Part shown: positions 2,758 through 15,646 of the stretch, one piece after another
Layout: each line of letters opens with the position of its first letter
Position numbering within the stretch: position 1 is the stretch's first letter
DNA from: a bacterium
Lineage (GTDB): Bacteria > Zhuqueibacterota > Zhuqueibacteria > Oceanimicrobiales > Oceanimicrobiaceae
DNA length: 20,227 nt
Reading direction: 5' to 3'
Assembly (NCBI GenBank): GCA_037446635.1
Contig: JBBIIG010000044.1
Coordinates: forward strand, 1-20,227
The notes under the pieces: model-generated
Seen by the model: only the letters and a program-made list of their open reading frames with translations
Databases searched by the model: none
What the model was told of the DNA's origin: nothing
Position numbers and translations under genes: made by a program

Positions 2758-2868
2758 GGAGTAATGGATTGCTGGCGCATGGCAGTAATGTAAAAACGAC
2801 CATTAATCCACTGACCCACTCATCCAGAAATCCATTACTCCAGAACTCCACCACTCCAGTGCTCCAGC
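2758..2868. repeat. Inverted 8-mer tandem-repeat arms with no enclosed gene
   Basis: Left arm: GGAGTAAT GGATTGCT GGCGCAT GGCAGTAAT (2758-2789). Right arm: CCATTAAT CCACTGAC CCACTCAT CCAGAAAT CCATTACT CCAGAACT CCACCACT CCAGTGCT CCAGC (2800-2868). Confidence 0.8.
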
Positions 2869-4123: not shown

Positions 4124-4201
4124 AATTGATTATTGACTATTTGACTAATGAACAAACGCTGACGCAATGATTAATCAATAGTCAATAGACAATAATCAAT
4201 T
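4124..4201. repeat. Inverted 7-mer tandem-repeat arms with no enclosed gene
   Basis: Left arm: ATTGATT ATTGACT ATTTGACT AATGAAC (4125-4153). Right arm: AATCAAT AGTCAAT AGACAAT AATCAAT (4173-4200). Segments 4124-4141 and 4184-4201 are reverse complements at 17/18 positions. Confidence 0.85.
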
Positions 4202-6703: not shown

Positions 6704-6760
6704 GGAGTAATGGAGCAATGGATTACTGGAGTAATGAAAAAGCCAACGCCAGCGCTCCAA
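6704..6760. repeat. 8-mer tandem-repeat arm with a degenerate inverted partner
   Basis: GGAGTAAT GGAGCAAT GGATTACT GGAGTAAT (6704-6735), followed by CCAACG CCAGCGCT CCAA (6743-6760). Confidence 0.75.
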
Positions 6761-10807: not shown

Positions 10808-12151
10808 CTAATCGAACGACAGTGGCAGGCCAATAATCACCCACAACGCCCAGACGACAGCCAAAACCGCGACCCGGGCGATGGACTCGCGAAAACGGTA
10901 AACCCACGGCGCCGAGCGACTGCGCCCCTGCTGGAAGCCAACCACTGCTAGCATGAGTAATGTTACCATGTTCCATCCGAATACGGCGTAGCGGTTCGGG
11001 GTCAAACCGAAATTAAGGGTGCGGCTGGCGATGGCCGCCAGCGCATAAATGTTAAGAAACAAGGTTAAACCTACCAATACCTGGACAGCATAGCGCAAGA
11101 TGGTATCCTGACGCGGAGAGCGCTCATCAAGCGGGCCCGATACGACCACGGTGAGCAGAACTAAAATCGCCAGGATGGTGGCATTGTAGATAATCAAAAC
11201 TTCCCGCTCCTGAAATGGTCGCCAGAAATAGGCGGGAACAAACCAGAAAACGTAGATAAGCAACACGCCAAGGGCCAGCGGCAGGATAAGCTGGGCGACG
11301 ATTCTGAGAATACGGGTGATACCGGTCGTCCAGTCTTGCGCTGCGGGCGCAGCCGTGGGGTCGTAAACGCTGGCCAGCGCCAACAGCGGAATGGTGCCAA
11401 TGCCCCAGGCCGCAACGGATTGTAAGTTATCTTGCGGGAGATGGATTCCCAAGACCGCAAATATGCCATAGGTTAAGCCCAGAAAAATAGCGCCAACCGC
11501 AAAATAGATGCCGCCCACCAGAACGGTTTCCACCGATTTCACAAGATACGCATAGCCTTGCCTGGCCGGGTCAGGTCGCCCCAAAGTCAGAGCAGCGCCT
11601 ATTGCAGCCCAGGCAACAAACGGCAGGTGAAGGCTGCTCAAAATCGCCGTGGCATCTACTCTGCGCCAGTTTGTGACAGCGGTATAGACAGCAACCGGTA
11701 TGACAGTTAGAGCGGCATATAGATACATGCGTTTCCTTGAGCGGTCAACCATTGCCAGGTAGAAAACGATACTTAGGGCGGTCAGCGGACTCCACCCAAT
11801 CCAGAACAGAGGTTCCGCTTCACCGGGTATCGGAACTGGCGCCTTATCACCGGCAAAAAGCGCATACCCGATGCCCAGCACTACGCTCGTCGCAATGGCG
11901 GTCCACCAGCGTCGGGTCTGGCTTTGATTCGCGGTTTGCTCATCCACTGTAACTAGAGGTGGAGGCAAAGCCAGGACGTCCAGTCGATAAGCCCAGGCCG
12001 AGAACAGGATGTTGTGCGGATGCTCGCCCGCACATCGTCCTATCGCCTCTTTAAAAGCGGCCTCATTTCCGGCCACAAGGGCCTGTTTGTAGATTCGTTC
12101 CAATCCAGCCGCATCATCGCGTGCCTCTTCAATTTGGCTTTTCAGGTTCAT
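10808..12151 (-). CDS. Polytopic membrane protein, DUF4153-like (447 aa)
   Basis: A soluble helical N-terminus ending AWAYRL, roughly 12 hydrophobic segments, and a C-terminal GLTPNRYAVFG motif. The family call is from recall only. Confidence 0.65.
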   Translation of the reverse strand: MNLKSQIEEARDDAAGLERIYKQALVAGNEAAFKEAIGRCAGEHPHNILFSAWAYRLDVLALPPPLVTVDEQTANQSQTRRWWTAIATSVVLGIGYALFAGDKAPVPIPGEAEPLFWIGWSPLTALSIVFYLAMVDRSRKRMYLYAALTVIPVAVYTAVTNWRRVDATAILSSLHLPFVAWAAIGAALTLGRPDPARQGYAYLVKSVETVLVGGIYFAVGAIFLGLTYGIFAVLGIHLPQDNLQSVAAWGIGTIPLLALASVYDPTAAPAAQDWTTGITRILRIVAQLILPLALGVLLIYVFWFVPAYFWRPFQEREVLIIYNATILAILVLLTVVVSGPLDERSPRQDTILRYAVQVLVGLTLFLNIYALAAIASRTLNFGLTPNRYAVFGWNMVTLLMLAVVGFQQGRSRSAPWVYRFRESIARVAVLAVVWALWVIIGLPLSFD

Positions 12152-13600: not shown

Positions 13601-13611
13601 TTTAACTGAAT

Positions 13612-14039
13612 ATTGTCAAATGATTATTGACTAATTTCTAATCTAATATTTCGCTGAGCTGTTTTACGTGACGCAATAAAGATTGAAGTCAGTTCCTTTG
13701 CTTCGTTTAATAGTGGTTCAACTAATTCTTTCTTCATCAGCGCTTCATCAATTATGAACTCCATCCAAAAAGCCGATTCATCGGTCTCCTCTATGACAAT
13801 GCTAACCTTGGAAACAAACACAGCTTTCGTTTGCGCTAAGCAGGTTGCGCGATAATTGGCAGCGACAGAAGTTGAACATCGAATTAGCTGCCCTTGAACA
13901 TGTCTTCCTAATTTCGTATCCGGCAACGCCAAAGCAAGCTTGACACAGCGATGAGCAAAATCCTTTGTCCTTTTCTTTAATTGCTCGAAATCCATAAGAC
14001 AACAATCCATTAAACAATAATCAATAATCAATAGACAAT
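13612..14039 (-). mobile_element. Putative cassette: four-helix-bundle gene enclosed by inverted 7-mer tandem-repeat arms
   Basis: Left arm ATTGTCAAATGATTATTGACTAATT (13612-13636) and right arm CAATAATCAATAATCAATAGACAAT (14015-14039) are reverse complements at 20/25 positions. More degenerate units extend to 13997. The interior is AT-rich. Mobility is inferred. Confidence 0.55.
13624..13995 (-). CDS. Four-helix-bundle protein (23S rRNA intervening-sequence protein/TIGR02436-like; 123 aa)
   Basis: LKKRTKDFA...QLIRCSTSVAANYRA...FVSKVSIVIEETDESAFWMEF...EAKELTSIF matches the family pattern. Probable start is ATG 13995. The upstream MIIDYCLMDCCL is translated repeat. Confidence 0.88.
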   Translation of the reverse strand: MDFEQLKKRTKDFAHRCVKLALALPDTKLGRHVQGQLIRCSTSVAANYRATCLAQTKAVFVSKVSIVIEETDESAFWMEFIIDEALMKKELVEPLLNEAKELTSIFIASRKTAQRNIRLEISQ

Positions 14040-15112
14040 TAATACACGCCTACCACCACCGATTCCTGCAACGACGACAACAACCGCACATTGGCCACAC
14101 CATCCCACGGATATTTCTCGATGGGCGGGGTGCGTTCGCCTTCGTCGCGTTCCAAAAATCGCGGCATAAAAAATTCTTTCGTCAGCGTGGTGAGCATCAC
14201 GCGGCCGGTCTGGCCGTAGTCCACCCCTTCTTCGGGATTGTCCGGATTGACAATTTCAAACACGGCGCGCGGATGCGGCGGATAATAAATGATGGCGTAG
14301 TTGTCCGCCGGATCAAACGGCTTGTGCACGGCGAGTCCCATGAGCGTGTTGCCGTAAGTCGGCACGAAATCGATGCCCGGCACCAGTTCCTCGCGGGCGA
14401 AGCGGTGGAACTGCGCGTTCATCTCAGTGCCGCCGCAGAAAATACCAGTGATGCCCGCCTTCTTCAAATTGATTTTCTCGCACAGCGCTTCCAGCAGCTT
14501 CGGGGTGATGAACAGGCATTTGATGTTATCGTGCGCGCGCAAGATGGTCAGCGCCTGATCGACGACGTGATTTTTGTACAGCTCCAGCTCCGCGAAATTG
14601 CCGCGTTTGATGAGCTTGTTCACCCAGCGCGGATCGAGATCCACAAAAAAGCAGATGCCGCCGCGATGCTGACAGAGATGCTCGACCGAGAGTCGCAGCC
14701 GCCGCGGGCCGCTGGGTCCGACCATCAGCCAATCAGCGCCTTTGGGGAACGTCTCGTCGGAAAGGGTCTCGCTGAACAGTTCGTAGTCGATTTGAAAATC
14801 GCGGATGTTGATACGGGTTTTGGGCACGCCGGTGGAGCCGCCGGTTTCGAAAACATAAGTGGGTAGATTTGCGAATGCTTTCGGCACCCATTTGCGCACC
14901 GGTCCGCCGCGCAGCCAGCTATCTTCAAAGTGGCCGAGGAGTTTCAGATCATCGTATCCGCCGATTTCTTTGCGGGGATCGAAATCCAGTGTCTTGGCAT
15001 AGTCCAGCCAAAACGGGCAGCCGGTCGCCGGGTCAAAATGCCAGTTGACGATCTCGCGCACGTGGGCGTCCAGCCTTTGTTTCGCTTGTTTTATTTTTTC
15101 GGAAAGTGTCAT
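14039..15112 (-). CDS. Truncated ANL-superfamily adenylating enzyme, EhpF/GriC-like (357 aa)
   Basis: WHFDPATGCPFWL N-terminus, P-loop ETGGSTGVPK, A5-like TYGNT and A7-like FLERD. It ends without the C-terminal subdomain, as is known for EhpF. Confidence 0.8.
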   Translation of the reverse strand: MTLSEKIKQAKQRLDAHVREIVNWHFDPATGCPFWLDYAKTLDFDPRKEIGGYDDLKLLGHFEDSWLRGGPVRKWVPKAFANLPTYVFETGGSTGVPKTRINIRDFQIDYELFSETLSDETFPKGADWLMVGPSGPRRLRLSVEHLCQHRGGICFFVDLDPRWVNKLIKRGNFAELELYKNHVVDQALTILRAHDNIKCLFITPKLLEALCEKINLKKAGITGIFCGGTEMNAQFHRFAREELVPGIDFVPTYGNTLMGLAVHKPFDPADNYAIIYYPPHPRAVFEIVNPDNPEEGVDYGQTGRVMLTTLTKEFFMPRFLERDEGERTPPIEKYPWDGVANVRLLSSLQESVVVGVY

Positions 15113-15125
15113 TTGTTCGCTAAGA

Positions 15126-15646
15126 GGATTAATGGATTAATGGATCAATGGATCAATGTTGTTTTTGGATTCGTAAATGCCTTCGTCGTCGGAGATTCGA
15201 TTTGACCATGTTCCGGATTCTTTCTTCTTCTCCAAGCTTTCTACTAATTTCAAAAGTCTGTTTTCCACTTCATAATGAAGTAAATCAATTTTCTTAAATT
15301 GCTCTTGAGTGATCTGATCTGTTTCTTTCAGGCCAATGGCTCGGCTCAGTGTCTCTGAAAGTGAGGACAAGGCAATAAACAAGAATTGCAGATACTCGTT
15401 TATTGAACGGCGACTGTAGCCTTCTGAAATGTTCGACGAAACCGATTGCGCCGCATCAGCGATTTGGGCGCGTAACTTAAAATCTACCTTGTTTTCTTTA
15501 TAAACAACTTTCCAAATCAGCTTGAACAACTCGATGGACTTCTGCCAAACCTCAAGCTTCATATATCCCCGATTCATATTGCGAAGCTGTGTATATTCAC
15601 TCATCGCTCCTCCCATTGATCCACCGATCCATTAATCCATTGATCC
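15126..15646 (-). mobile_element. Putative cassette: four-helix-bundle gene enclosed by inverted 8-mer tandem-repeat arms
   Basis: GGATTAATGGATTAATGGATCAATGGATCAATG (15126-15158) and CATTGATCCACCGATCCATTAATCCATTGATCC (15614-15646) are reverse complements at 30/33 positions. The interior is AT-rich. Mobility is inferred. Confidence 0.6.
15137..15604 (-). CDS. Four-helix-bundle protein (23S rRNA IVS protein-like; 155 aa)
   Basis: GYMKLEVWQKS...LRAQIADAAQSVSSNISEGYSRRSINEYLQFLFIALSSLSET is the classic family motif. GGAGG RBS precedes ATG 15604. The last codons (IDPLIH) come from the repeat arm. Confidence 0.9.
   Translation of the reverse strand: MSEYTQLRNMNRGYMKLEVWQKSIELFKLIWKVVYKENKVDFKLRAQIADAAQSVSSNISEGYSRRSINEYLQFLFIALSSLSETLSRAIGLKETDQITQEQFKKIDLLHYEVENRLLKLVESLEKKKESGTWSNRISDDEGIYESKNNIDPLIH

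Follow-up and report, generated by a model that had tools for sequence, protein, structure and literature searches.

The contig analyzed here (JBBIIG010000044.1, 20,227 nucleotides [nt], hereafter the window) carries two small genes for four-helix-bundle proteins, HB1 and HB2, each enclosed by inverted arrays of tandem 7- or 8-nt repeats. Comparison with relatives supports the view that arm, gene, and arm together form a self-contained unit that is gained and lost at the boundaries between genes. We consider it probable that HB1 and HB2 are two independent insertable cassettes, that each protein likely reads its own 7- or 8-nt arrays, and that the stem formed by the arms would be cut by ribonuclease III (RNase III). 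The initial annotation of this DNA had already proposed a unit of this kind, and its interpretation overall is partly supported by the results presented below.

Two repeat-armed genes in one operon

Every gene of the window lies on the minus strand, and the order around the cassettes is a pyrroloquinoline quinone (PQQ)-type propeller gene, HB1, a gene for a 357-amino-acid (aa) protein, HB2, and an aldehyde dehydrogenase gene (Table 1). The presence of two members of one family at consecutive operon junctions, as initially annotated, was confirmed with curated profiles: against PF05635 and TIGR02436, HB1 scored 80.6 and 76.4 bits (cut-offs, 33.8 and 24) and HB2 scored 40.8 and 64.9 bits, likewise above the curated cut-offs. 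Orthologues place the start of HB1 at 15604, behind GGAGG, and that of HB2 at 13995; the listed open reading frames (ORFs) are 15137..15616, which begins four codons earlier, and 13624..14031.

The octamer arms of HB1 (15126-15158 and 15614-15646) are complementary at 30 of 33 positions, exactly as claimed, and the 20/25 match given for the heptamer arms of HB2 proved to be part of a 25/31 match (13612-13642 and 14009-14039), with arms that stretch to 34 nt (13602-13635 and 14009-14042) at 74% complementarity. Arm scores were judged against a control of 400 mismatched pairs, each made up of the 5' flank of one family gene and the 3' flank of a different one (99th percentile, 12). HB1 scored 24 and HB2 scored 13, a value reached by 0.5% of control pairs. 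The 5' arm of HB1 ends immediately upstream of the GGAGG ribosome-binding site, and its 3' arm ends 14 nt ahead of the position at which the following gene starts (15112). At its outer end, the 5' arm of HB2 overlaps the TAA stop of the 357-aa gene, and a single nucleotide lies between the HB2 3' arm and the aldehyde dehydrogenase ATG (13600). In both cassettes the 3' arm was said to supply the last codons and the stop, and it does; that of HB1 encodes the final seven codons and the TAA (15137-15139). Across relatives, a stop codon inside the 3' arm is a minority feature (9 of 51 cassettes). The AT-rich interiors described earlier were reproduced (14/60 G+C at 15241-15300 and 21/60 at 13681-13740), and the complete cassettes contain 40.5% (HB1) and 37.4% (HB2) G+C versus 55-58% in adjoining genes. 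No transposase, recombinase, or reverse transcriptase was matched by Pfam among the 15 window ORFs, in agreement with the initial annotation. Since the cassettes lack a recombinase, host functions or another element would have to drive their movement.

Table 1. Coordinates of the cassettes and of related features in the window, in other contigs of this genome (C), and at one further locus (L172)
Feature	Coordinates	Strand	Description
HB1 5' arm (mRNA strand)	15614..15646	-	Four tandem octamers GGATYRRT; pairs in the minimum free energy (MFE) and centroid folds
HB1 gene, 155 aa	15137..15604	-	PF05635/TIGR02436 four-helix-bundle protein
HB1 3' arm	15126..15158	-	Four octamers ATTRATCC
Host gene between the cassettes, 357 aa	14039..15112	-	Weak AMP-binding match; served to locate orthologous junctions
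HB2 5' arm	14009..14042	-	Tandem heptamers ATTGWYT
HB2 gene, 123 aa	13624..13995	-	PF05635/TIGR02436 four-helix-bundle protein, SxxxANYRA subtype
HB2 3' arm	13602..13642	-	Heptamer-like units; TAA stop (13624-13626) inside
Gene-less hairpin, HB2 heptamer family	4124..4201	-	ATTGAYT arms, 20-nt loop; fold z -3.59
Solo octamer array CATTRMTC	6704..6735	-	3'-arm type of the octamer family; intergenic spacer
Direct octamer array, nTGGAnnn units	2822..2859	-	Junction ahead of the 445-aa propeller gene
GxxExxY gene	C31:8905-9255	+	Inverted-repeat flanks, by eye
GxxExxY gene	C25:56152-56487	-	Inverted-repeat flanks, by eye
GxxExxY gene	C12:15332-15679	+	Inverted-repeat flanks, by eye
GxxExxY gene	C92:6861-7193	-	Inverted-repeat flanks, by eye
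GxxExxY gene	L172:2121-2393	-

A structure model of HB1 (pLDDT 85.8) matched the family structures 2GSC (target-normalized template modeling [TM] score 0.93; root mean square deviation [rmsd] 1.3) and 2RLD (TM score 0.85), each of which contains five chains. The fold shared with Avd, the accessory protein of diversity-generating retroelements (DGRs), had been pointed out in the initial annotation and was recovered for the HB1 model (4DWL; TM score 0.86, rmsd 2.2), with 11% sequence identity. HB1 carries S-x3-N-x2-E (S58, N62, E65), which is part of the family motif GxxRxxxSxxxNxxE as given in the available text of PMC3936711. Among 40 sequences, E65 is invariant and S58 and N62 are almost so (HB1 numbering); HB2 keeps the S and N, with ANYRA in place of NxxE. 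The HB1 clade is further marked by the C-terminal tail GTWSNR(I/V)SD(D/E)E, which reads GTWSNRISDDE in HB1 itself. Ratios of nonsynonymous to synonymous substitution (dN/dS) were 0.055-0.21 in the 8 of 18 pairs for which dS could be estimated; dS was saturated in the other 10, with dN of 0.16-0.31. Overall, we conclude that the family proteins are under purifying selection. PADLOC returned no match for either HB1 or HB2, and we know of no catalytic motif in the four-helix-bundle fold of this family.

Occupancy of orthologous junctions and coupling of repeat unit to protein clade

Orthologues of the 357-aa gene (80-85% identity) are present in 12 related genomes out of a set of 20 from the same family and 2 from the same class, and orthologous operons were compared at 13 loci. 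Junction A runs from the propeller gene to the 357-aa gene, and junction B from the latter to the aldehyde dehydrogenase gene. At junction B, the genes of six relatives (L002, L003, L007-L010) meet in a stop/start overlap of 3-8 nt or across a gap of a few bases, free of hairpins. Genome G014 has an HB2 orthologue there (81% identical) with arms as in HB2, L006 has an NTP_transf_2+HEPN pair, L012 has a Phd+PIN pair, and L001 and L011 contain other hairpins. At junction A, octamer-armed HB1 orthologues are present in G014 (82% identical), in G017 (68%; the gene carries an internal TGA), and in G009, where the sequence is partly masked. A decayed HB1 copy with its arms retained was found in G003, and a gene-less octamer remnant, whose end AATCCTC is that of the window arm, in G008. 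The same junction consists of a short spacer without arms in L005, L007, and L013 and contains other small genes in L001, L003, and L010. It differs even between G003 and G019, two genomes of a single genus whose host proteins are almost identical.

Genes of the HB2 clade were also found away from junction B in three genomes, 72-78% identical and with the same ATTGAYT/ATGATTA arms. The cassette sits one junction further on in G009 and G011 and between tRNA-Arg(ACG) and tadA in G018. The corresponding tRNA-Arg(ACG)-tadA spacer of this genome contains a solo array of eight ATTGAYA heptamers instead of the complete cassette. In total, HB2-clade genes (72-81% identical) with these arms occupy at least three different sites. 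From this comparison of HB1 and HB2 sites, we conclude that both junctions were invaded, that the arms arrived with the gene, and that cassettes decay to gene-less arrays. The proposal of a self-contained unit at gene junctions is thus sustained by orthologous junctions that are filled, empty, decayed, or otherwise occupied and by same-clade genes that bear the same arms at different sites. A further clade, with TAGGCTG arms, occupies four unrelated sites, and its element ends, CTATTCAGGT...ACCTGAATAG, are identical at all of them. According to the initial annotation, a fixed place with congruent phylogeny would have spoken against mobility. This objection holds in part for some cassettes: certain members of a clade share flanks and have thus been inherited vertically at a single site in several genera, and other members do not share them.

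Both operon junctions are favored places for the insertion of small selfish genes. Modules of the toxin-antitoxin type lie there in relatives at L006:1770-2469, L012:1791-2425, L001:2217-2459, and L010:3268-3528, and comprise NTP_transf_2+HEPN, Phd+PIN, and Phd-like genes scoring just below the cut-off.

To collect family genes, as the initial annotation had suggested, the 4.64-Mb assembly was searched with the curated profile and with a profile built from its own matches (21,144 ORFs). Exactly five family genes were found, and all five have inverted tandem-repeat arms, with the units GTGAGAG, GGTATAA, CGATGAT, GGATYAAT, and ATTGAYT. The search was extended to the top 80 family matches in 40 relatives that covered the profile, were free of stops, and were located over 300 bases away from the start of their contig. 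Together with the five genes above, 76 genes had complete flanks, of which 54 exceeded the 95th and 46 the 99th percentile of the control; the latter count scores HB2 as nonsignificant, and the 41 genomes underlying both counts are not independent. Among the 51 cassettes with an arm score of at least 13, both arms had period 7 in 44, period 8 in 4, and another period in 3, and the arms lay a median of 445 nt apart.

In relatives, many family genes are located no more than a few hundred bases from the end of a contig (L015, L026, L031, L035, L047, L052, L058, L068, L069, L073, and L082). Assemblies seem to break at these repeats, so that counts of gene copies in draft genomes are probably too low.

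In a quick maximum-likelihood tree of 87 proteins, every well-supported clade had its own unit (GTGAGAC, ATGCTGG, AAGGTAT, TAGGCTG, AGTSATC, AGAGSGC, and the octamer). The HB1 clade was then sampled more widely with a three-sequence alignment searched against one genome per species of a public collection; the wide sample is limited to this clade because an alignment of 40 diverse members had no sufficiently conserved stretch. Of the 60 loci recovered, mostly 53-79% identical, the reading frame was short or broken in 3, and in 6 the flanks were too short or were truncated by the end of a contig. Significant arms were present at 41 of the 51 loci with complete flanks, and period 8 with a GGAGT/GGATT core was found in both arms at all 41. 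The cores were GGAGTA (49 units), GGAGTG (31), and GGATTG (13). Record titles of these loci name mostly Verrucomicrobiota/Chthoniobacterales/Udaeobacter and, in addition, Candidatus Scalindua, Cytophagia, Bacteroidota, Chitinophagales, Alphaproteobacteria, candidate division KSB1, Caldithrix, Latescibacterota, and others. The earlier suggestion that each subfamily may recognize its own repeat period therefore stands in the form of covariation: unit and period follow the clade. Between HB1 and its G014 orthologue, dS is 1.5 (near saturation) and the GGATYAAT unit is nevertheless retained in the arms; the unit is therefore constrained or continually renewed. This conservation where synonymous sites are saturated, together with the covariation, suggests that the proteins likely recognize their repeats.

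Across whole genomes, the coupling between arrays and cognate genes is real but loose, and the genomes compared are kin and not independent. With two mismatches allowed (and no match to the reversed-pattern control in any genome), the octamer pattern matched 558 times in this genome, 174 in G014, 155 in G001, 140 in G037, 89 in G022, and 59 in G002. HB1-clade genes were found in this genome, G014, G037, G040, G017, and G009; the arms in G040 consist of TGGAGTGR units, outside the pattern. Arrays of ATGCTGG matched 88 times in G003, 49 in G019, and 46 in G037, and the cognate gene was found only in G003, G019, and G018.

Predicted RNA stems, gene-less arrays, and alternative explanations

Both pairs of arms pair with each other in the MFE and centroid folds of the transcript. 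For HB1, the closing stem comprises 28+4+6 bp (z -4.56); for HB2, the whole fold is no better than shuffles (z -0.98). An uninterrupted 28-bp duplex is a typical substrate of RNase III, and the genome has an rnc gene encoding this enzyme. Cassettes are co-oriented with their neighbors at 65 of the 75 decidable flanks (65 versus 10; of 182 flanks in total, 85 were undecided and 22 too short or masked), an excess that the binomial p-value overstates because orthologues are counted separately. By analogy with rRNA elements, the arms likely lead to cutting of the transcript, and this cutting may be what makes an insertion tolerable.

Tandem Repeats Finder reported 659 period-7 and 465 period-8 arrays in this genome versus 264 and 120 in a block-shuffled version. 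Inverted array pairs no more than 2 kb apart numbered 92, of which 62 had loops of at most 200 nt. Octamer hairpins (TGGATTAA/TGGAGTAA/TGGATCAA) with loops of at most 70 nt numbered 33, and as judged by reading the list of array pairs, the heptamer hairpins mostly have the units of resident cassettes. One such hairpin of the HB2 heptamer family lies in the window between the 810-aa and 430-aa propeller genes (Table 1), and heptamer hairpins were also seen between tRNA genes at C9:47700-48700. The polarity of hairpin arms relative to gene direction was considered and dropped as uninformative, because a palindrome shows its G-rich arm first on both strands.

The explanation that we favor is an insertable unit in which a PF05635/TIGR02436, Avd-like gene is set between inverted arrays whose 7- or 8-nt repeat is specific to the protein clade, and in which the encoded four-helix-bundle protein would likely recognize the arrays that surround its gene. 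Once the operon is transcribed, pairing of the arms would produce a long stem for RNase III to cleave, as in 23S rRNA elements; we infer this processing from stems of 28 bp and more, the rnc gene, and the Coxiella precedent described below.

Several observations weigh against this explanation. The descent of hairpins from cassettes was seen only at two orthologous sites, the loops of the 33 octamer hairpins all differ, and of the 46 loops of 60-2,000 nt, 4 are known cassettes and none of the other 42 was found to hold a remnant of a four-helix-bundle gene. About one-third of the family genes lack significant arms; in some of these cases a complete hairpin follows the gene. Three genomes with many octamer matches yielded no HB1-clade gene, namely G001 (155 matches, 74% complete), G022 (89, 85%), and G002 (59, 99%), and no cognate gene was found in G037 for its 46 ATGCTGG matches. 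Target-site duplications and precise cassette ends could not be defined. Finally, the clue drawn from HB1, in which two of the three stem mismatches are G-U pairs on the sense strand, is correct for that stem and does not generalize: mismatches on the sense strand were G-U in 52 cases and A-C in 51 (53 cassettes), and G-U in 25 versus A-C in 47 within the octamer clade (41 cassettes). Selection on the sense RNA stem is not detectable, because G-U shows no excess over A-C, and RNA pairing by itself does not seem to have shaped the arms. In the octamer-clade arms (L095-L154), the 5' arm tends to the A variant (TGGAGTAA) and the 3' arm to the complement of the G variant (TCACTCCA), an asymmetry that accounts for the 47 to 25 ratio.

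It is unlikely, in our judgment, that gene and hairpins instead form a domesticated pair resembling repetitive extragenic palindrome (REP) elements and their RAYT proteins, in which gene-less hairpins work for the host, for instance as transcript stabilizers or processing sites, a single-copy protein maintains or spreads them, and the protein's own gene simply happens to be flanked by its substrate. Such a pair would fit the single gene per unit family beside dozens of gene-less hairpins, the co-directional neighbors at 29 of 33 hairpins for which both flanks could be called, the cassettes inherited vertically at one site across genera with saturated dS, and the HB1-clade gene in three of the four genomes with at least 100 octamer matches. 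Cassettes nevertheless become pseudogenes and remnants, toxin-antitoxin pairs replace them at the same junctions, they are AT-rich relative to the host, and protein identities of 53-79% between records of different phyla point to horizontal spread; the fold, moreover, has no known catalytic motif.

We regard as quite improbable a second alternative, the one favored by the initial annotation, that the unit is chiefly an mRNA intervening sequence, with looping out of the gene regulating or insulating the flanking cistrons. The long predicted stems, the rnc gene, the excision of the rRNA version by RNase III (available text of PMC4990558), and the co-orientation with the operon would all suit that function. 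What argues against it is the missing G-U excess on the sense strand, the palindromic octamer hairpins that are alike on both strands, the HB2 fold that does not surpass shuffles, and junction B itself, which in six relatives is a tight stop/start overlap without an element, so that the operon does not need one. Very improbable is the notion that generic intergenic tandem-repeat hairpins came first and four-helix-bundle genes land or persist in their loops: same-unit gene-less hairpins are numerous (62 with loops of at most 200 nt, and octamer loops that all differ) and array-rich genomes without a detected cognate gene exist, but arms owned by the host would not be expected to track the protein clade in unit and period across different phyla by record title (41/41), empty orthologous junctions are entirely free of hairpins, and one clade has identical element ends at four sites.

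Relation to known systems and further observations

A close precedent for an insertable cassette is the intervening sequence (IVS) of 23S rRNA. In the accessible part of PMC4990558, the S23p IVS of Coxiella burnetii is described as carrying three to four tandem GACAGAT heptamers just ahead of the S23p ATG, in a copy number that varies among strains; it is excised from 23S rRNA, with an RNase III cut at the first heptamer, and a further ORF-bearing case is cited from Leptospira. As in these elements, a PF05635 gene here lies in the loop of an inverted-repeat stem, has lower G+C than the host, and is suspected of horizontal spread. In contrast to them, the present cassettes lie between protein genes of an operon rather than in rRNA helix 45 or 25, both whole arms consist of tandem 7- or 8-mers, and gene-less derivatives occur genome-wide. 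In the sources as available, excision by RNase III is shown for the rRNA IVS only.

The resemblance of PF05635 to Avd is described in the portion of a DGR paper available to us (PMC10053308). The HB1 model shares the fold of Avd (PDB 4DWL; DGR ribonucleoprotein entries 8UB7 and 8UBB). Unlike Avd, with which identity is 11%, HB1 has no adjacent reverse transcriptase or template/variable repeat; the sole RVT_1 match in the genome is a 985-aa open frame on another contig (C27:1799-4753, minus strand). By eye, this frame comprises a reverse transcriptase domain, tetratricopeptide (TPR)-like repeats, and a long C-terminal part, with no four-helix-bundle gene nearby.

RAYT proteins are HUH/Y1 transposases with known chemistry. 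Like the REP/RAYT system and its REPINs, the cassettes place a gene between inverted copies of its own repeat, are accompanied by gene-less intergenic hairpins, and have a repeat cognate to the protein clade; unlike RAYT, the protein is a helical bundle of about 120 aa without a known catalytic site, and the arms are tandem 7- or 8-mers instead of a single palindrome. Integron cassettes are similar in having a promoterless small gene, co-directional insertion, and an imperfect inverted-repeat site (attC). They differ in that attC is a single 3' site and cassettes are stacked at attI next to an integrase; here they are scattered singly and have two tandem-repeat arms. Cyanobacterial short tandemly repeated repetitive (STRR) sequences are intergenic tandem heptamers.

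Other intergenic heptamers include TAACTGA in Beggiatoaceae (PMC4679880) and GGGACCG-type elements in Geobacter metallireducens (PMC2700814), as reported in the accessible text of each. These and STRR sequences resemble the present arrays in having 7-nt tandem units in spacers, often just upstream of starts and in variable copy number. In contrast, no link to PF05635 is drawn for them: in the available text of PMC4679880 and PMC2700814, the terms "S23," "helix bundle"/"four-helix," and "intervening" occur 0 times. In the accessible part of PMC3936711, 18 family genes are reported from within cas loci, one position being between cmr3 and cmr2, and are interpreted as functionally associated; a preprint, as far as available, places family genes in rRNA insertions of candidate phyla radiation (CPR) bacteria. 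A literature search, which did not cover subscription journals, returned no paper mentioning "TIGR02436" and no description of a repeat-armed cassette outside rRNA or of a rule tying unit to clade.

A broader reading, which we put forward tentatively, is that PF05635 proteins could be sequence-specific readers of 7- or 8-nt words that form, with their arrays, a self-propagating system. Such a system might be the source of unexplained tandem 7- and 8-mer repeats in bacterial intergenic DNA and of ORF-bearing rRNA IVSs, a REP/RAYT-like partnership built on a nonenzymatic Avd-like ring. The family is very common and its structures are solved, yet it has had no assigned function since its discovery in rRNA intervening sequences, and the tandem heptamers of bacterial spacers are equally unexplained. 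The coupling of unit to clade offers a concrete and cheap test of binding to the protein's own word, with the GGAGT/GGATT-core octamer for one clade and distinct heptamers for others. The coupling also puts rRNA intervening sequences in a new light, as one of several places in which a general cassette lands; operons, tRNA clusters, and, by the available text of PMC3936711, cas loci are others. For annotation, these genes should be read as insertions and not as members of the surrounding pathways.

A few observations concern cassette ends and empty sites. TTAA is present at both ends of HB2 and fits an empty site of the TATTAAATG type in one relative; this is a single case, and we make no claim from it. 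In a search for an empty site, the flanks of a G019 cassette were not found in G003 of the same genus. G001, which belongs to the genus of the genome studied here, is only 74-83% identical to it in DNA over the long matches, which span 178-828 bases, and the G001 contigs are broken where the cassettes lie. Logan contigs from two DNA runs (share 0.18, compared at 85% likeness) consisted of short contigs of relatives with partial coverage. One of them joined 15158 to 15620, skipping HB1; it was not used, having only 26 letters on one side, and it is most likely another hairpin, because octamer hairpins are abundant.

The window also contains, in mid-operon, a 447-aa ORF (10808-12151, minus strand) without a Pfam or NCBIfam match. 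It is absent from the G009 locus, where an iron-containing alcohol dehydrogenase (Fe-ADH) gene directly follows the HB2-like cassette. Genes of the GxxExxY type (TIGR04256) appear to be a second small cargo, as inverted-repeat flanks were seen by eye at all four such genes of this genome (Table 1). The arms of the C92 gene are octamers of the ACGGATTA type, and in G001 a GxxExxY gene with CACAGAG-type arms occupies the junction that in this genome holds the GGTATAA-armed four-helix-bundle cassette.

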